64,000 nucleotides of DNA, from positions 45,730-109,729 of the forward strand of contig CAZOYW010000001.1 of NCBI GenBank assembly GCA_964584165.1, read 5' to 3'. Every line of letters begins with the position of its first letter. Position 1 is the first letter of the stretch. This DNA comes from an uncultured bacterium. Lineage in GTDB: Bacteria; Auribacterota; Erginobacteria; Erginobacterales; CAZKCI01. Both the position numbers and the translations under genes were made by a program. Of this stretch, positions 25,152 to 32,098 are shown one piece after another. The notes beneath the pieces are model-generated. The model saw only the letters and a list, made by a program, of their open reading frames with translations. It was not told where the DNA came from and ran no database searches.

Positions 25152-25889
25152 CTAAAACTTAAAGGCCATCCCGAAGCTTAAGACCGGGTAGACCGGCCAG
25201 TCGCGCACGTCGTCGGTAAAGTCGTCCTTCTCCTTGGCCAGGTCGACCCGGAAGGCGGGATCGGAGGCGAGGGGGCCGTCGGCGGAGACCGTGACGTCGC
25301 ACCAGGGGATGACCACGCCGAGGTCGAAGGAGAACGTCACGTCGCTGTCCTCGTCGACGGCGTCCCCCACGCCGATGCCGACATAGGGAGCGAGCGTGGG
25401 CAGGCTGACCTTCTTCGTCAGCGTCCCCACCCCGGCTCCGGGATAACGGTTGTCGCCGACCTTGATGTCTTCGGTCGACGACTCCTCGTATCTTCCGTAA
25501 CCGTTGGCCAGGCAGGCCCCCGCGCTGAGGCGAAACTGGCCGCCGCCGACGTGCCAGTCGAGCAGGAGCAGGCTGGTCAGGGTGCTCAGCTTGAAATGGT
25601 AGTCGTCCTCGTCCTCTTCCCGATGATAGGCGAAGCCCAGGTAGCTCAGGTTCCCCCGGAGGTTGAACTTCTCCGCGATCCCCACCGTGAGGTCCACGCC
25701 CGGCCCAAGCGTTCCGACCTTGAAGCCCATCGCCACGCCCGCCTGCCAGGAGGGCGAGGGCTGGGCCACCGGGGTTGCCCCGGCGTCCTTTTCCAGCCCG
25801 GCGGTGCCGGCCTCCTGGCCCCAGACGGTTTGAGTTCCGAGAAAGCAGGCGATCGCCGCGACCAACGCGCAGAATAGTTTTCCGCTCAT
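25152..25889 (-). CDS. Outer-membrane beta-barrel protein
   Basis: Signal peptide; KVGTLGPGVD, APYVGIG; C-terminal GMAFKF. Confidence 0.75.
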   Translation of the reverse strand: MSGKLFCALVAAIACFLGTQTVWGQEAGTAGLEKDAGATPVAQPSPSWQAGVAMGFKVGTLGPGVDLTVGIAEKFNLRGNLSYLGFAYHREEDEDDYHFKLSTLTSLLLLDWHVGGGQFRLSAGACLANGYGRYEESSTEDIKVGDNRYPGAGVGTLTKKVSLPTLAPYVGIGVGDAVDEDSDVTFSFDLGVVIPWCDVTVSADGPLASDPAFRVDLAKEKDDFTDDVRDWPVYPVLSFGMAFKF

Positions 25890-25947
25890 CGCGTTTCTCC
25901 TCTTGGTTGGGAGATTGACTCCACAGCCGCTGGGGCCGATGAAGGAG

Positions 25948-26053
25948 ATGGACCATATGGACGAGATGGACATTATGGACGATCTATGGCCGGCCTTACG
26001 GGCCAATACCGTCCATATCGTCCATGCCGTCCATAACGTCCATCTCGTCCATG
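25948..26053. repeat. Nonamer ATGGACnnn / GTCCATnnn tandem arrays in inverted arrangement
   Basis: 4 left units and 5 right units. Confidence 0.85.
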
Positions 26054-26082
26054 GCCCCGGAACCGGGTAATCTACCGGATCG

Positions 26083-27354
26083 TCACCCCGCCGCCAAGAA
26101 CAGAATCCCATAATAGGCGCCGGCGAGGAGGGCCAGGAGCCCCGCCGGGGGGAGGAGGAGACGGAAGCAGGAGGGAAAGCCCGCGCGGAAGTAGTCCTTG
26201 GAGAAGACGAAGCAGACGTGGATGGGCGAGAGGATCATCCCCAGATAGCCGCAGAAGAAGGCGAGCGACCCGCCGGCCAGAAGGGCGAGTTGCCCTCCCC
26301 CCTGGAGGAGGGGCACGACGATGGGGAAGGAGACGCCGACGTAGCCGAAGGCGATGCCGGTGATCAGCCCGGAGACAAAGGGCAGGAGGGCGATGACGAG
26401 AAGGGGCGGAACGCCGGCCGCCGTCAGCTCGTCCTTCACCGTGAGGGCGAGCCCCCCCTCGCGGAGAACGGCCCGGAGGGCCATGACCGCCAGGACCAGG
26501 CCGGCAAAGGAGACAAAGCGGCGGTCGCGGAGCGCGCCGAGGGCGGCGAACCCAGCCAGGCGGCGGTCGAGGATCGCGGCCAGGATGCCGAAGAGGAGGC
26601 CGCCGAGCATCGGAAGCTCCGGAGGGACCGCGCCCGCGGGGAGGAGCCTCCGGGCCAGGGAGAAGGCCGCGAGCGCGGCGACGAGGACGAGAAGCGGCCT
26701 CGCCTCGAAGAGGAGCCTTCGCCATCCCTCCTCCGCCCTCCCCTCTTCCCCGCCCCCCTCGCTAAAGTGCCTCCGGCGCAGAAGAAAGGCGGCGCCCGCG
26801 ATGACGGCGAAGACGGTCAGGGGGAACTGGACCAGGACGAAAAGACCCAGGGGGACCTCGAGGAGACCGACCGCCAGGATGAAACCGGGGTAGAGCGGCC
26901 ACCAGTATTCCCAGACGTGGCGGAACCAGTAGTTGATCACCGCCTTGCGTTCCCCCGGAAGACCGGCGCCGACCGAGGCCTGCTCCACCATCGGAGCCGA
27001 CAAGAGGGCCCCGCCCGGGAGGGGGAGGAAGCCGACCAAGGCGGGGAGAAGGGCGCTCGAGAGCCGGCGGTCGCGGACCACGCCCCGGAAAGCCTCCACC
27101 GCCCCTTGGAGCGCCCCCGCCGCCTCCAGGAGACGGCTGAGATAGAGGATGAGGAGGACGATCAGGAGGAGATAGGCGGTCTCGCGCTGGAAGGCGGCCC
27201 GAGCCATCGTCTCCGCGACCGCCCCGGGGGCCATCCCGGCCCAGACCCCGAGGAGCGCGCCGCCGGAGAGAAGGGCGACGGCCAGGGGGAGACCGAGGCG
27301 GTTGAGGAGAAGGATGGCGGCGAAGGAGAGAAGGAGCTTGAAGAGAGAAGGCAC
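26083..27354 (-). CDS. DUF401-family membrane protein (putative transporter)
   Basis: PALVGFLPLPGGALLSAPMV; NYWFRHVWEYWWPLYPG; SPIHVCF. Start placed outside the repeat. Confidence 0.85.
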   Translation of the reverse strand: MPSLFKLLLSFAAILLLNRLGLPLAVALLSGGALLGVWAGMAPGAVAETMARAAFQRETAYLLLIVLLILYLSRLLEAAGALQGAVEAFRGVVRDRRLSSALLPALVGFLPLPGGALLSAPMVEQASVGAGLPGERKAVINYWFRHVWEYWWPLYPGFILAVGLLEVPLGLFVLVQFPLTVFAVIAGAAFLLRRRHFSEGGGEEGRAEEGWRRLLFEARPLLVLVAALAAFSLARRLLPAGAVPPELPMLGGLLFGILAAILDRRLAGFAALGALRDRRFVSFAGLVLAVMALRAVLREGGLALTVKDELTAAGVPPLLVIALLPFVSGLITGIAFGYVGVSFPIVVPLLQGGGQLALLAGGSLAFFCGYLGMILSPIHVCFVFSKDYFRAGFPSCFRLLLPPAGLLALLAGAYYGILFLAAG

Positions 27355-27360
27355 GGAATA

Positions 27361-27442
27361 AAAGTTACGTAAGGTTACGAAAAGTGCGCTAGCGGTAACC
27401 TTACGTAACCTCACGTAACTTCACGCAACCTTACGTAACTTT
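27361..27442. repeat. Family B decamer array with inverted arm
   Basis: AAAGTTACGTAAGGTTAC pairs 17/18 with the right end. Confidence 0.88.
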
Positions 27443-28681
27443 TCTGTTTCCACCCGGAATCGCCAGGTTGAGCGCCACCCCGGTGATGCCCGCCAGGCCG
27501 ATCCCGGAGATACGGAAGTTCCCGATGGAGAAACACATCCCGCCGATCCCGAAGACCAGGATCAGGGAAACGATGATCAGGTTCCGGGGCGCGGTCAGGT
27601 CCTCCCGCGACCTGACCAGGGTCCCCAGCCCCACCACCGTGATCGCTCCGAAAAGGAGGAGCATAATCCCGCCCATGACCGGAGTCGGGATCGACTGGAG
27701 GAACGCCCCCAGCTTCCCCACGAAGGCGAGGAGGATGGCAAAGACGGCGGCCCAGGTCATGATCGCCGGGTTGAAGACCCGGATCAGCGTCACCGCCCCC
27801 GTGACCTCTGAGTAGGTGGTGTTGGGGGGGCCGCCGAGGAGGGCGGCGAGCGAGCTCGCCAGGCCGTCCCCGAGCAGGGTGTTCTGGATCCCGGGGTCCT
27901 TGAGATAGTCCCTCCCGGTCACCGAGCCGATCGCCAGGATGTCCCCGAAATGCTCGATCATGGGGGCGATCGCCACCGGCAGGATGAAGAAGACCGCCTC
28001 CCAGGACCAGCGGGGGAAGACGAACCGGGGGACCGCGAGCCAGGGCGCCCGGGAAACCGGGGAGAGATCCACCAGCCCGAGGAAGAGGCTGGCGGCGTAC
28101 CCCGCCGCGACCCCGCAGAGGATCGGGATGAGGCGAAGGAGGCCCCGACTCCGGATGGAGACCGCGATGGTGGCGGCCAGGGCGACCATGGCCGCGGCGA
28201 CCGGCTTCCAGCCGGCGAGGAGGACGACGCAGCCGTCCCCGCTCTTCCCCATCGCCATGTTCACCGCCACCGGCGAAAGCACCAACCCGATCACCATGAT
28301 CACCGGCCCGGTGACCACGGGGGGAAGGATCCTCTCCAGGAACCCTGACCCCTTCCAGCGCACCAGGAAGCTGACCACGACGTAGAGGATGCCGGAGACG
28401 GCCAGGCCGCAGAGGGTGGCCGGGATCCCCCAGTTCTTGACCCCGTAGATGATGGGGGCGATGAAGGCGAAGGAGGAGGCAAGGAAGATCGGGACCTTCC
28501 CCCGGGTGATGACCTGGAAAAGAAGGGTCCCCAGCCCGGCGGTGAAGAGGGCGACGTTGGGATCGAGGCCGGTGAGGAGGGGGACCAGGACCAGCGCCCC
28601 GAAGGCGACGAAGAGCATCTGGGCGCCGATCAGCGAATCCTGGAGGCGGAAACGGTAATCCGGGCTGGAATGGTCTCTCAT
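27431..28681 (-). CDS. uraA: Uracil/xanthine permease (NCS2)
   Basis: [14 protein letters not shown]; EHFGD; [13 protein letters not shown]2 signature. Confidence 0.95.
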
Positions 28682-28817: not shown

Positions 28818-30227
28818 ATGCTCACCGCGAAGGAATACTACCGCGATCCCGAGGTCCAGGAGCGCATCGCCGAGTATTGCGGCGGGACCGCCCGGGAGCC
28901 GGAGCTCTGCACCGCGGAATACCTCGTCGGATACGGGGAGGCCCTGATCGGAACGCCCGCCCCCGAGCCCTACGTTTCCCGGCCCAAGTCCGGCTTCCAC
29001 TACATCCTGGGGCGGGGGCTCGACATCTTCCGCTCCCTCTGGGACCGGGTCCACACCCTGGGCGTCCTCGACATCGAGTATTTCAACAAGGACTACCCGG
29101 GCGAGATCTACTACGATCCGTCCGGTGTCTTCCGCCGCCTGGAGCCGGTTTACGAGGCGATCAAGAAGATCTACCGCGGCTACGGCATCCAGCCCCTGGT
29201 CCTGACCACCGGCCAGGGCTACCACTTCTCCTTCCAGATCCAGTCCGGGACCAAGACCGACCTGATGCTGGAGGACGCCGGCCGCCTGATCGATTCCCTG
29301 GAGGGGAAATACCGCGCCGCCTCCGCGAAGCGCCCGAGCAAGGTCTCCGTCCGCCACGGCAAATCCTTCGACGGGATGGGGCGGGTGATGGAGTTCATCG
29401 CCCACCGGATCATCCGGGAAGCCGGGGAGGCCGCCGACCTCCCCCTGGTGATCACCGACGTGGCGGTCGGCCCGGGGCGCAAGGGCCGGGAGGCGATCTC
29501 CCTCGATCTCTCCTGCTTCGGCGACCCCGTCTACATGCGGGACCTTCGCTGCGCCTTCTCCACCCACCAGAAGCACAAGGTCCAGGTCTACAAGGTCGGG
29601 GAGGCGATCGCCCGCTCCATCCCGGTCCAGGTGGCCATCCCCCGGGGCAAGCTCGCCCTCGACGAAGTCCTCCACCTCCGCCGCCACTTCCGCCACAGCG
29701 CCGACTATGCCCGCGACGTCTATTGCTTCATCCCCGACTTCACCGTCAACTTCAAGAAGGTGATCGCCGATTACCTGGAGTCGAAGCTCCACCGCTTCCA
29801 CGCGTGGTACGACAGCGTCACCCAGGACCACTGGACGGTCTGGGACAAAACCTACCGCGCCTTCGACCTCCGGGCGGTCCCCCCCTGCGTCCGCCACTCG
29901 CTCGAAGTTCCCAACGACCATCTCCTGAAACCCACCAACCTCCAGACCCTGACCCGCTGCCTGCTCGCCCTCGGCTGGCACCCCCAGCACATCGCGGGGC
30001 TGGTCCGCTCCCGCTGGGAGGGCCCCTACGACTGGGGCGACCAGTGGAAGCAGTTCGACGCCGGTTCGCGCTCCTCCTTCTACGTGCGGATGTTCGCGGG
30101 GCTGCTCGCCGACGGGACCGACGGGATGGTGGACCACAACTGCGTCTCCCACCAGCAGAAGGGGTATTGCTGGCGGCCGAACTGCGGTTACAGCCTGGGC
30201 AACTACCGGTGGGACGGAAAGTTCTGA
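28818..30227 (+). CDS. Putative AEP primase-polymerase fused to a 4-Cys PriL-CTD-like domain (paralog 1)
   Basis: GGAGG RBS; LDIEYFN, LTTGQGYHF, LDLSCFGD...RCAFSTHQK; PPC...NCVSH..KGYC...C. The CDS is certain; the function is inferred. Confidence 0.65.
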   Translation: MLTAKEYYRDPEVQERIAEYCGGTAREPELCTAEYLVGYGEALIGTPAPEPYVSRPKSGFHYILGRGLDIFRSLWDRVHTLGVLDIEYFNKDYPGEIYYDPSGVFRRLEPVYEAIKKIYRGYGIQPLVLTTGQGYHFSFQIQSGTKTDLMLEDAGRLIDSLEGKYRAASAKRPSKVSVRHGKSFDGMGRVMEFIAHRIIREAGEAADLPLVITDVAVGPGRKGREAISLDLSCFGDPVYMRDLRCAFSTHQKHKVQVYKVGEAIARSIPVQVAIPRGKLALDEVLHLRRHFRHSADYARDVYCFIPDFTVNFKKVIADYLESKLHRFHAWYDSVTQDHWTVWDKTYRAFDLRAVPPCVRHSLEVPNDHLLKPTNLQTLTRCLLALGWHPQHIAGLVRSRWEGPYDWGDQWKQFDAGSRSSFYVRMFAGLLADGTDGMVDHNCVSHQQKGYCWRPNCGYSLGNYRWDGKF

Positions 30228-30240
30228 CCGAGAGTCGATA

Positions 30241-30345
30241 GGGAAGGGTTAGGAAGTGGGTCTGGAGAATGGGTTAGGGTCAGGTGGGGCTGGCTAGACC
30301 ATCAACCTCACCCACCGACCAGACCAATATCCTCACCCTCACCCA
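30241..30345. repeat. Family J element between the two AEP-like paralogs
   Basis: Reverse complement of about 30305-30345 matches 5311-5351 with about 6 mismatches. Confidence 0.75.
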
Positions 30346-30361
30346 TCAACCATCTTTTACC

Positions 30362-31804
30362 ATGTCTATCCCCGTCGTCTCCGATTCCGAGCGGAAGGCC
30401 GTCCGCGACTACTACCGCTCGCCCGCCGTCCGCGAGCGGATACTCGATTTCTGCGGCGGCAGCGAGCCCTCCTGCGAATACTGGGTCGGCTTCGGCGAAA
30501 CCCTCGTCCGGCGGGGCTATCTCCGCCCGATCCGCGTGGTCGAGACCTGGGACGGCCTCCAGGAACTGATGGCCGACGCCCTCGACCTCAACCGGTCGGT
30601 CTGGGACCGCGGGGCGACGCTCGCCGTCTGGGACGTGGAGTATTTCAACCTCGACACCTGGGACGGCCTCTACCGGAACCAGAACGAATACTTCGGCCTG
30701 ATGGAGCCGACCTACCGGGCGATCGAGAACCTCTTCCGGAGCTACTCGCTGCCCCACCTCAACGACTCCACCGCCTCCGGCTACCACTTCGTCTCCCGGA
30801 TCCCCTTCTCCTCGCCCGTCCACGCCCGCCTGGAGAGGATCGGGACGCTGGAGCGGAGCCTTCTCGACAAGTATGCCTTCGTCCCCGGCGGGGACAACAA
30901 GCGCAAGCGGGCGGTCTCCGAGCGGGACGGGCGCGGCTACAGCGCGGTCGGCCGCTTGACCGAGTTTCTCTGCCACCGGGTGATCGAGAAGGCCCGGGAG
31001 AAGAGCGAGCTCTCGATCACCATCTCCGACACCGCCCGGGGACGGGGGCCGCGCGGGCGGGAGGGGATGAACCTGGATATCACCCAGTACGGCGACCCCC
31101 TCTTCATGCGGACCATCCGCACCTCCTTCTCCACCCACCAGAAGCACAAGGTCTACGTCGGCAAGGTCAGCCTGGAGACCGCCCGCGCCCTCCCCTTCTT
31201 CGCCGCCGTCCCCCGGGGGCGCCTCTCCTACCGGGACCTATTCGAGATCCGGCGGGACCTCCGGGAGGCCGCCCGCTACGCCCGGACGGCGCAATCCTCC
31301 GTCCCCGACGGCGCGGCCGGCTGGGGGAAGATCCTGGACGACTACCTCGCCTCCCCGCTCTACGCCTTCCACCGGGAATTCGACTCGGTCGAGATCGATT
31401 CCCCCCATCGCTGGGGGGAGACCTACTGGAAGACCGACCTGGGGGCGCTCCCGGCCTGCGTCGCCGGAGCTCTCCGCAACCCCGCCTGGGGCCTCCTCGT
31501 CCCGACCAGCATCCAGACGGTCTGCCGAGTCCTGATGTCCCGGGGCTGGCATCCCAAGCACATCGGGGGGCTGATCTATTCCCACTACACCCGGAACCAC
31601 GACTGGGGGATCGACTGGACCAAGTACCACGCCGAGACCCGCGCCAACTTCTGGGCCCGCGTTTACTGCGGGCTCATCGCCACCGGGATCGACACCCTCG
31701 ACGACTTCAACTGCGTCTCCCACACCGAAAAGGGCTTCTGCCCTTCCCCCTGGTGCGGCCACAACCTCTCCGAATGCCGCGACGCGCTGCTCAAACGCCT
31801 CTGA
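30362..31804 (+). CDS. Putative AEP primase-polymerase fused to a 4-Cys PriL-CTD-like domain (paralog 2)
   Basis: WDVEYFN, STASGYHF, LDITQYGD...RTSFSTHQK; PAC...NCVSH..KGFC...C; colinear with paralog 1. Confidence 0.65.
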   Translation: MSIPVVSDSERKAVRDYYRSPAVRERILDFCGGSEPSCEYWVGFGETLVRRGYLRPIRVVETWDGLQELMADALDLNRSVWDRGATLAVWDVEYFNLDTWDGLYRNQNEYFGLMEPTYRAIENLFRSYSLPHLNDSTASGYHFVSRIPFSSPVHARLERIGTLERSLLDKYAFVPGGDNKRKRAVSERDGRGYSAVGRLTEFLCHRVIEKAREKSELSITISDTARGRGPRGREGMNLDITQYGDPLFMRTIRTSFSTHQKHKVYVGKVSLETARALPFFAAVPRGRLSYRDLFEIRRDLREAARYARTAQSSVPDGAAGWGKILDDYLASPLYAFHREFDSVEIDSPHRWGETYWKTDLGALPACVAGALRNPAWGLLVPTSIQTVCRVLMSRGWHPKHIGGLIYSHYTRNHDWGIDWTKYHAETRANFWARVYCGLIATGIDTLDDFNCVSHTEKGFCPSPWCGHNLSECRDALLKRL

Positions 31805-31811
31805 CGGCTGT

Positions 31812-31889
31812 TTAACCGCGAATTCACGCGAATAACGCGCGAATGAGACCGGTAGATTCGCGCTTGATTCGCGCCTATTCGCGGTTCAA
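31812..31889. repeat. Family C (AACCGCGAAT..CGCGAAT) inverted element
   Basis: Left arm is 32/33 identical to 44064-44096; relatives at 33070-33262, 33893-33970, 42836-42946, 47441-47525 and 48896-48936. Confidence 0.88.
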
Positions 31890-32098
31890 TGTTGGTGCGC
31901 GGGGACGGCGAGATTCCGTAGCCGCGGACCTTGAGGTCCGCGGGCCGGGCGTAGCTTCGCGTATATGGGAGCGGCATCCTTGCCGGTGGCCCCGCGGTTT
32001 AAGCTCCTCATCGGTCCGATCCGTCGGATCCGACTGATCCGTCCGATCGGAGCGGTTGTTATTTGCGTCGGGGCGTGGCGCGTGCTATTTGTTTAGTT

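Follow-up and report, generated by a model that had tools for sequence, protein, structure and literature searches.

A tandem pair of primase-polymerase-like genes from an uncultured Auribacterota bacterium and their unnamed family with a recurrent endonuclease-IV-like partner

In bacteria, members of the superfamily of archaeo-eukaryotic primases (AEP) are known mainly from non-homologous end joining (NHEJ; LigD), from excision repair by LigC and Prim-PolC, and from mobile elements. Here we describe what would be a further setting. In a stretch of 64,000 nt from an uncultured bacterium of the phylum Auribacterota (the window), two tandem genes, A and B, encode AEP-like proteins of a large, bacterial, chromosomal family that has no name and no Pfam or NCBIfam model. 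Each protein appears to join an AEP catalytic domain to a helical C-terminal domain (CTD) with four conserved cysteines (Cys4), and in other lineages the family is linked to a TIM barrel that resembles endonuclease IV (EndoIV, Nfo). The superfamily is known; the family within it, the C-terminal domain and the partner are new.

The family's best structural match is Prim-PolC (PolD1) of Mycobacterium smegmatis (5op0, 6sa0), which is likewise a chromosomal, non-replicative bacterial AEP and has a C-terminal extension around its active site. Prim-PolC and LigC act in stationary-phase base excision repair (BER), where gap filling works best with EndoIV (PMC5663958). However, there is no detectable sequence similarity between Prim-PolC and our family, and Prim-PolC has neither a Cys4 helical domain nor an ancillary priming domain; its operon partner is an ATP-dependent ligase, not a TIM barrel. 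Second best is the polymerase domain (PolDom) of LigD (2r9l, 2iru) from bacterial NHEJ. The motifs are alike: both have DxD/E, the TGGKGLH of PolDom corresponds to TGQGYHF in our family, and its PYSxR segment, which the basic segment of gene A resembles, corresponds to PFSxHQK. LigD also couples its polymerase to a phosphoesterase that heals 3' ends, which is the logic that we propose for the AEP-like protein and the barrel, but that phosphoesterase has a different fold, is fused with a ligase and has Ku as a partner, none of which is linked to our family.

PolpTN2 (Thermococcus plasmid pTN2) and NEQ395 (Nanoarchaeum equitans) are fused PriS-PriL(CTD) primases. Their C-terminal domains are PriL-like by sequence, whereas that of our family is not, either by hidden Markov model (HMM) or by Foldseek. 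They are also archaeal or plasmid replicative primases, whereas our family is bacterial and chromosomal and co-exists with DnaG. Eukaryotic PrimPol combines an AEP domain with a UL52-like zinc finger, a C-terminal metal module that is needed for priming, and it serves damage tolerance rather than bulk replication. In PrimPol a flexible linker carries the finger, which is a small CHC2 knuckle, whereas the predicted metal site of our family lies inside a helical domain of ~190 residues. PrimPol has motif I in the DxE form, as our family does, and no primase-proficient AEP is without an ancillary domain (PMC10345425). Among bacterial AEPs, a survey describes mobile-element PrimPol-PV1 families with PriCT domains (PMC5862659).

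The proteins of genes A and B (Table 1) align over their full length with 191 of 464 residues identical (41%, E 2e-121), a similarity that, going by this alignment, far exceeds chance and makes them paralogs. The original prediction for this DNA had described tandem, colinear paralogs of 469 and 480 aa with shared blocks, and all of the blocks are present in both genes in the same order: YCGG/FCGG, RSLWDR/RSVWDR, D(I/V)EYFN, GYHF, LD(LSCF/ITQY)GDP, MR..R..FSTHQKHK, GWHP.HI.GL, NCVSH..KG(Y/F)C...CG and VPPC/LPAC. It had also seen AEP motifs I to III in order and had inferred that both active sites are intact. The superfamily motifs are defined as hhhDhD/E, sxH and hD/E (PMC10345425), and all three lie on predicted strands and are ~100% conserved. 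Among 101 homologs, D85, E87, D230, R241, R244 and K252 occur in every sequence, S248 in 100 and H136 in 97, which puts all motif residues at 97-100%. The catalytic octet (D-E/D-H-D-R-R-S-K) persists in 116 more distant relatives, including subfamilies that lack the cysteines, and the wider family has either D or E as the second acidic residue of motif I. Genes A and B and a third paralog in the same genome keep all catalytic residues. The basic segment that holds R241, R244, S248 and K252 would bind the triphosphate.

An AlphaFold2 (AF2) model of the gene A protein, with the family alignment as input, had a predicted local distance difference test score (pLDDT) of 93.1 and a predicted template modelling score (pTM) of 0.93. 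We compared this model with the Protein Data Bank (PDB) by Foldseek, and ranks 1-14 were exclusively AEPs (probability 0.72-1.0, target-normalised TM-score 0.35-0.57), namely Prim-PolC (M. smegmatis), LigD PolDom (M. tuberculosis), CAPP (Marinitoga) and human PrimPol. The best matches were Prim-PolC 5op0 and 6sa0 (E 2e-3 to 9e-3, probability 1.0, TM-score 0.45-0.50 per target), and the others included PolDom 2r9l and 2iru, CAPP 7nqd and PrimPol 5l2x (probability 0.72). Unrelated folds began at rank 15 (probability ~0.1), human PriS (4mhq) came at rank 20 with a probability of 0.18, and yeast Pol alpha-primase (8fok) was at rank 40 with a low probability. The proposed AEP fold therefore came through this check for the N-terminal ~275 residues, with all of the 14 best matches being AEPs, but the label 'PriS-like' did not, as the nearest structures are the repair AEPs Prim-PolC and PolDom. 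We accept genes A and B as predicted AEP-superfamily (primase-polymerase) proteins because the top Foldseek ranks are all AEPs and because motifs I, II and III, ~100% conserved, sit on the expected strands. A caveat to this assignment is given below.

The C-terminal half had been likened to the CTD of PriL, and this we could not uphold. Modelled alone (AF2, 45-sequence alignment), the domain had a pLDDT of 90.8. Foldseek, a method that is weak on helical domains, gave best E-values of 2.6 in PDB and 1.2 in BFVD for this model, and at E<=10 it found no match in either database to PriL-CTD, PriX, PriCT or the pRN1 helix bundle. In Pfam (E<=1) there was no match to PF04104, PF08708 or PF08707. 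We rejected PriL-CTD homology since neither a fold match (PDB, BFVD) nor a Pfam match was found, and as far as the models go the C-terminal helical domain is novel. It is predicted to be rigidly packed on the AEP domain (pTM 0.93).

The four cysteines fared better. C357, C442, C451 and C456 are 99-100% conserved in the 101 homologs. Among the superfamily sequences that we scored, 78 have all four (CCCC), ~15 lack all four and 4 have a partial set, and ~15 further sequences have CCC with the last cysteine shifted by one residue in the alignment (e.g. P0155, GFCLENCAS). This all-or-none loss across the superfamily suggests that the four cysteines form a single predicted metal site. Their spacing in gene A, C-x84-C-x8-C-x4-C, differs from what we take to be the spacing of the PriL cluster. 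At C21, in the N-terminal CGG motif, Cys and Leu alternate without regard to the Cys4 set, so this residue is not a ligand. We also rejected a CHC2 finger of the PrimPol type because H445 is conserved in only 70 of 101 homologs and gives way to Q, A, T, M or other residues in the rest. The metal may be a [4Fe-4S] cluster or Zn; we lean toward Fe-S because one cysteine is remote and three are clustered, and because the hosts are apparently mostly anaerobes.

We surveyed the neighbours of the family in 79 loci from one-genome-per-species contigs plus several assemblies, and clustered all neighbouring open reading frames (ORFs). The original prediction had proposed such a survey, and it gave us the partner. 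Just one neighbour is shared by several phyla, a TIM barrel of the xylose-isomerase-like type (PF01261). Of 82 distinct loci, 31 have it next to the family gene (27 immediately downstream and 4 upstream). These loci come from Elusimicrobiota, Planctomycetota, Thermodesulfobacteriota, Ignavibacteriota, unclassified metagenome-assembled genomes (MAGs) and others. Both deep clades of the tree show the association, and branches with good support divide it into at least six clusters. In a distant subfamily, which was seeded with P0142 and at 90% identity comprises over 1,200 clusters, the barrel is immediately downstream in four of five sampled loci with otherwise unrelated flanks. The called genes overlap in three of the five, by 4, 44 and 59 nt, the last from the listed coordinates of L116 (7403 vs 7461). 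The barrel of this subfamily and that of Elusimicrobiota are orthologous (hhalign probability 100%, E 2e-63). There are also natural fusions of the AEP-like protein and the barrel in a single metagenomic ORF, P0155 (747 aa) and P0174 (724 aa).

The 4-nt overlap is found in a cultured organism with a complete genome, Desulfurivibrio alkaliphilus (L107; CP001940.1, ~1,437,094-1,458,524). There the AEP-like gene and the barrel gene occupy 1447094-1448524 and 1446258-1447097 on the minus strand. They lie 8 nt downstream of a gene for hibernation-promoting factor (HPF), in convergent orientation to an operon made up of sbcD, sbcC and a canonical nfo-like gene.

The barrel has nine invariant residues, H81, H123, E165, D196, H199, H221, D230, H232 and E261, one His of which is in HAPF. 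With hhalign (probability 96%, E 2e-9), H123 to E261 fall on H109, E145, D179, H182, H216, D229, H231 and E261 of Escherichia coli Nfo, which are the ligands of the EndoIV trinuclear metal site (1QTW). By these alignments the barrel appears to keep nine metal ligands of the Nfo type, eight of them aligned to Nfo. It falls far short of the curated Nfo models (26-30 bits, with cut-offs of 130-333; for TIGR00587, 26 bits against 129.65), canonical nfo co-exists with it in the same genomes, and the barrel is an orthologous group of its own. Among solved structures it is closest to MJ1311 (E 6e-22 against PDB), which has been listed as a predicted EndoIV homolog of Methanocaldococcus jannaschii (PMC2770678). 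In full-text literature searches we found no paper that links an AEP to a xylose-isomerase-like or EndoIV-like partner. This conserved and sometimes fused partner points to an undescribed DNA-repair module.

The claim that no helicase, Cas, Ku/LigD, reverse transcriptase or integrase is near the pair also stands. Among the clustered neighbours (those in at least four loci) no helicase, ligase, Ku, Cas, reverse transcriptase, integrase or phage gene recurs, the PADLOC models gave no match at E<=1, there are no relatives among 2.9 million IMG/VR viral contigs, and flanking genes are housekeeping genes in the annotated loci. The original prediction missed a context that is conserved in the family, that of the EndoIV-like barrel. 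We also rejected two other ideas. A replacement of DnaG is rejected because the genome has a full-length DnaG (437 bits). A LigD-like system is rejected because TIGR02778 (LigD PolDom) is absent from the window's genome and 78 relatives, i.e. from all 79 genomes of the phylum, and because the hhalign comparison to 12 PolDoms described below was insignificant.

A word search for homologs gave 242 clusters at 90% identity, all annotated 'hypothetical protein' and of ~470 aa, and an exhaustive profile search gave 615 clusters at 50% identity. The family is mostly found in uncultured phyla that are apparently anaerobic. A maximum-likelihood tree has two deep clades with 97% support by the Shimodaira-Hasegawa-like approximate likelihood ratio test (SH-aLRT). 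Gene A is in clade A with most single-copy genes, and gene B is in clade B with single-copy genes of Lindowbacteria and Thermodesulfobacteriota. As A and B are in separate deep clades, the pair is not a recent duplication; the paralogy that had been claimed is confirmed, but 'duplicated' has to be read as two old subfamilies.

In Auribacterota the family is present in 22 of 79 genomes and 13 of 50 genera. All 22 positive genomes, which include 14 of 14 genomes of the window's order, carry at least two copies, and in the window's lineage an A-type and a B-type gene are always encoded together. The gap between A and B is 0-16 nt in 10 of 19 tandem loci, which fits a single operon. Synteny is conserved throughout the order, and the A and B clades look vertical. 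Tandems of A and B recur in UBP18, where the A copy is from a different A subclade. The third paralog in the window's genome is a 511-aa ORF on another contig (C10, 16293-17828 (-), or L087:8794-10329) of clade B; it evolves fast, is ~40% identical to A and keeps every catalytic and Cys residue. It is flanked by a gene of the uracil-DNA glycosylase (UDG) superfamily, priA, and a gene for a DNA_pol_A_exo1-type 3'-5' exonuclease.

Our favored reading, to which we give a probability of about 0.55, is that A and B are anciently diverged members of a new AEP family of repair or damage-tolerance primase-polymerases that in most lineages work with an EndoIV-like partner. Each protein would be a single chain of an AEP catalytic domain and a helical Cys4 domain. 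D85, E87 and D230 would form a two-metal site, H136 would be the residue of motif II, and R241, R244, S248 and K252 would hold the incoming NTP or dNTP. We infer a DNA substrate: the barrel partner would cut at abasic sites or unblock 3' ends, and from the 3'-OH so produced the AEP domain would fill in, using the metals bound by D85, E87 and D230. On chromosomal DNA that is damaged, the enzyme would extend short nucleic-acid chains and probably could also start them. The helical metal domain would hold the template and the initiating nucleotide, as PriL-CTD, the PrimPol zinc finger and the pRN1 helix bundle do. In most lineages the partner would be encoded adjacent, overlapping or fused, and in the window's lineage not in cis, where A and B would form an operon of two specialized enzymes or of a hetero-oligomer.

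The nearest precedent is Prim-PolC/LigC; Prim-PolC, the closest structural relative of the family, fills BER gaps best with EndoIV. Other hints of DNA repair are the nfo-sbcCD operon that faces the D. alkaliphilus pair, and the UDG and PriA genes beside the third paralog. If the repair reading is true, this is a new repair module of a polymerase and an end-processing enzyme, apparently concentrated in anaerobic phyla with few cultured members, and a new answer to the problem of the 'ancillary domain' in primer initiation. A gene pair annotated 'hypothetical' everywhere could then be named in thousands of genomes, and the member in D. alkaliphilus AHT2, with its complete genome and cultured host, makes the prediction directly testable.

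A bolder version goes further, and we offer it as a tentative and rather doubtful one. The AEP-like protein and the EndoIV-like barrel would be a third bacterial AEP repair pathway besides LigD/Ku NHEJ and LigC/Prim-PolC BER. The Cys4 domain would be an Fe-S module, an analogue of PriL-CTD of independent origin that makes the protein a true primase, and A and B would be a catalytic heterodimer in Auribacterota.

Several results weigh against the repair reading. The first group concerns the AEP assignment, which stands on the predicted fold and on motif logic without confirmation by a sequence method. Neither A nor B had a match in Pfam, NCBIfam or PADLOC (E<=1) or among PDB sequences, and neither did a 42-sequence family profile searched against PDB and the others, nor an HMM of the catalytic domain alone against PDB. 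The Foldseek E-values to AEPs are modest (~1e-3). When we aligned the AEP domain with 12 planctomycete LigD PolDoms by hhalign, the probability was an insignificant 3.7%, and the weak alignment covered only the motif II segment (TGQGYHF to TGGKGLH). The second group concerns DNA as the substrate. In HMM scores the barrel does somewhat better with sugar epimerases (IolO, E 6e-17) and with CbiR (E 3e-11) than with the Nfo models (E 3e-7); MJ1311, its nearest solved relative, has no known function. The substrate therefore need not be DNA. The third group concerns context. No ligase, Ku or helicase is linked to the family in the neighbour survey, and the window's own operon has no barrel gene; a canonical nfo and a single additional EndoIV-like barrel are encoded in the genome, both away from the A-B operon. 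By tblastn, the UDG, priA and exonuclease genes were not found in a 19.5-kb region around the third paralog in a sister family (72% identity). As this other family of the order does not share the context, we rejected it as strong evidence and count it as weak.

In a different reading, the family is a nucleotidyltransferase that does not act on DNA. The pair could be a synthase and a hydrolase of a linear oligonucleotide or nucleotide-derived signal (cf. GGDEF/EAL), an RNA or tRNA end-repair pair, or a cofactor-remodelling pair like CbiR. Fusions of a synthase to a TIM-barrel phosphodiesterase are typical of signalling enzymes; GGDEF has an RRM-like palm, and EAL is a TIM-barrel phosphodiesterase. 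An alternative that is even more novel than the bolder version above would be of this kind, with the pair as a synthase/phosphodiesterase couple for a new nucleotide signal. We consider the non-DNA reading unlikely, although besides the ranking of IolO and CbiR over Nfo and the uncharacterized MJ1311 it can draw on some of the loci. HPF, Usp and PPDK, which are stress-related, are neighbours in some of them, and no ligase or Ku is linked. One metagenomic member, P0199 (612 aa), has an N-terminal CBS pair (PF00571, E 3.5e-23), a ligand-sensing module, fused to the AEP-like and Cys4 domains, which suggests that an adenosyl ligand regulates the protein in some lineages. The hisS-aspS genes are near the family gene in Elusimicrobiota and Auribacterota but not in Planctomycetota, Thermodesulfobacteriota or the P0142 subfamily, so we treated them as synteny limited to two phyla and rejected them as a functional partner. 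All of the significant structural matches are DNA-acting primase-polymerases, while cyclases reach a probability of at most 0.18. The barrel, moreover, has the full ligand set of the EndoIV type, not the four-ligand set of sugar isomerases of this barrel type.

A true fused PriS-PriL-like primase for replication restart or lagging-strand priming, as a bacterial counterpart of NEQ395 and PolpTN2, is in our judgment quite improbable. The AEP plus helical Cys4 architecture does parallel the fused PriS-PriL enzymes (PMC3973330, PMC10250227), an ancillary domain is present in all primase-proficient AEPs (PMC10345425), and the third paralog is beside priA. But the priA linkage is not conserved, the genome has its full-length DnaG, and a family found in 22 of 79 genomes of the phylum is too patchy for a core replication function. 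The structural comparisons also disagree with it, as human PriS is a poor match (probability 0.18) and the CTD resembles PriL-CTD, PriX or PriCT neither in fold nor in sequence. A mobile-element replicase or an anti-phage defence component, suggested by the patchy phyletic distribution and by most bacterial AEP families being on mobile elements (PMC5862659), is very improbable given the absence of viral relatives (IMG/VR), of a PADLOC match, and of integrase, helicase and phage genes in the annotated loci or the neighbour clusters of at least four loci, together with a GC content like that of the surroundings, order-wide synteny and the vertical-looking A and B clades.

Table 1. Positions in the window of genes A and B, of their predicted domains and motifs, and of the spacer between them.
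Feature	Positions	Strand	Remarks
Gene A (P0001)	28818..30227	+	469 aa; subfamily-A member of the unnamed AEP-like family; ORF with strong ribosome-binding site; tree clade A
Gene A, AEP-like catalytic domain	28818..29645	+	residues 1-276; based on secondary structure and on the alignments of 337-367 columns that Foldseek gave with Prim-PolC and PolDom
Gene A, motif I, D85-I-E87 (hhhDhE)	29070..29087	+	LGVLDIE; in predicted strand 79-90
Gene A, motif II, G134-Y-H136 (sxH)	29217..29228	+	start of predicted strand 134-142
Gene A, motif III, L229-D230 (hD)	29502..29528	+	end of strand 225-230; followed by conserved GDP (D236, P237)
Gene A, basic segment MRDLRCAFSTHQKHK	29535..29579	+	R241, R244, S248, K252
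Gene A, C-terminal all-helical domain (predicted)	29646..30224	+	residues 277-469; with Cys4 site
Gene A, Cys4	C357 29886-29888; C442 30141-30143; C451 30168-30170; C456 30183-30185	+	
A-B spacer	30228..30361	+	134 nt; one long imperfect hairpin; minimum free energy -53.9 kcal/mol, z = -3.0
Gene B (P0002)	30362..31804	+	480 aa; subfamily-B member; tree clade B (97% SH-aLRT)
Gene B, motifs I and II	motif I DVE 30632-30640; motif II GYH 30779-30787	+	
Gene B, motif III and basic segment	motif III LD 31073-31078; basic segment 31106-31150	+	
Gene B, Cys4	31457-31459 and within 31709-31759	+	

Some members of the family differ from genes A and B in their active site. In P0235, P0240, P0242, P0245 and P0189 several catalytic residues are gone (e.g. 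DKQDQQTE or YRHDGGCN instead of DEHDRRSK), and the four cysteines are mostly kept. Going by these substitutions, they may be inactive, perhaps regulatory, paralogs. A distant paralog in an Elusimicrobiota-like MAG (L090:6628-8079 (-), genome G079) is a different case: it keeps the AEP catalytic residues and lacks all four cysteines, the C-terminal Cys triad and the N-terminal CGG motif. This gene overlaps the end of a gene for a PHP-domain phosphoesterase, and uvrB, surE, clpC and a PhoH-like PIN gene are nearby. We rejected a linkage to the PHP phosphoesterase because it was not found in two other loci, one of which is only 2.8 kb. In locus L001 a second gene of 470 aa was considered as a tandem paralog and rejected, since clustering identified it as an unrelated lipoprotein beside an LpoB-like gene.

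The ATG of gene A is 6 nt 3' of GAAGGAGG. The ORF of gene B is open from a GTG at 30284, and we prefer the start at the ATG at 30362 from the N-termini of homologs. The spacer between the two genes is G-rich and then C-rich, and its seed GGGTTAGGGTCAGGTGGGG occurs once in the window. It is an insertion specific to this lineage, and we rejected a conserved inter-gene hairpin because in many relatives A and B abut. In some relatives the junction holds structured but unrelated inserts (65-313 nt), and it seems to attract insertions.

The neighbours of the pair are as they had been described. Upstream and divergent is a xanthine/uracil permease gene (Xan_ur_permease, PF00860, E 3e-91) at 27431-28681 (-), and 3' of the pair are Fe-S protein genes, first that of a DUF362 protein and then that of a polyferredoxin. 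We rejected a functional link to these Fe-S genes, as they are absent among the conserved neighbours. The GC content of the locus is uniform with its surroundings. The DNA 3' of gene B (31805-32062) has several copies of short motifs of the CGCGAAT / ATTCGCG type (cgcgaattcacgcgaataacgcgcgaatga...gattcgcgcttgattcgcgcctattcgcgg) and may be an intergenic repeat like the repetitive extragenic palindromes (REP), and three overlapping terminator-like hairpins are found at 32044-32086. Upstream of the permease are a 319-aa ORF and a gene for a DUF401 membrane protein (25152-26111 (-) and 26083-27414 (-)). No Pfam model matches the 319-aa ORF, whose N-terminus is odd and repetitive (WTRWTLWTAWTIWT, SIMSISSIWSISF) and whose C-terminal half is outer-membrane-like.

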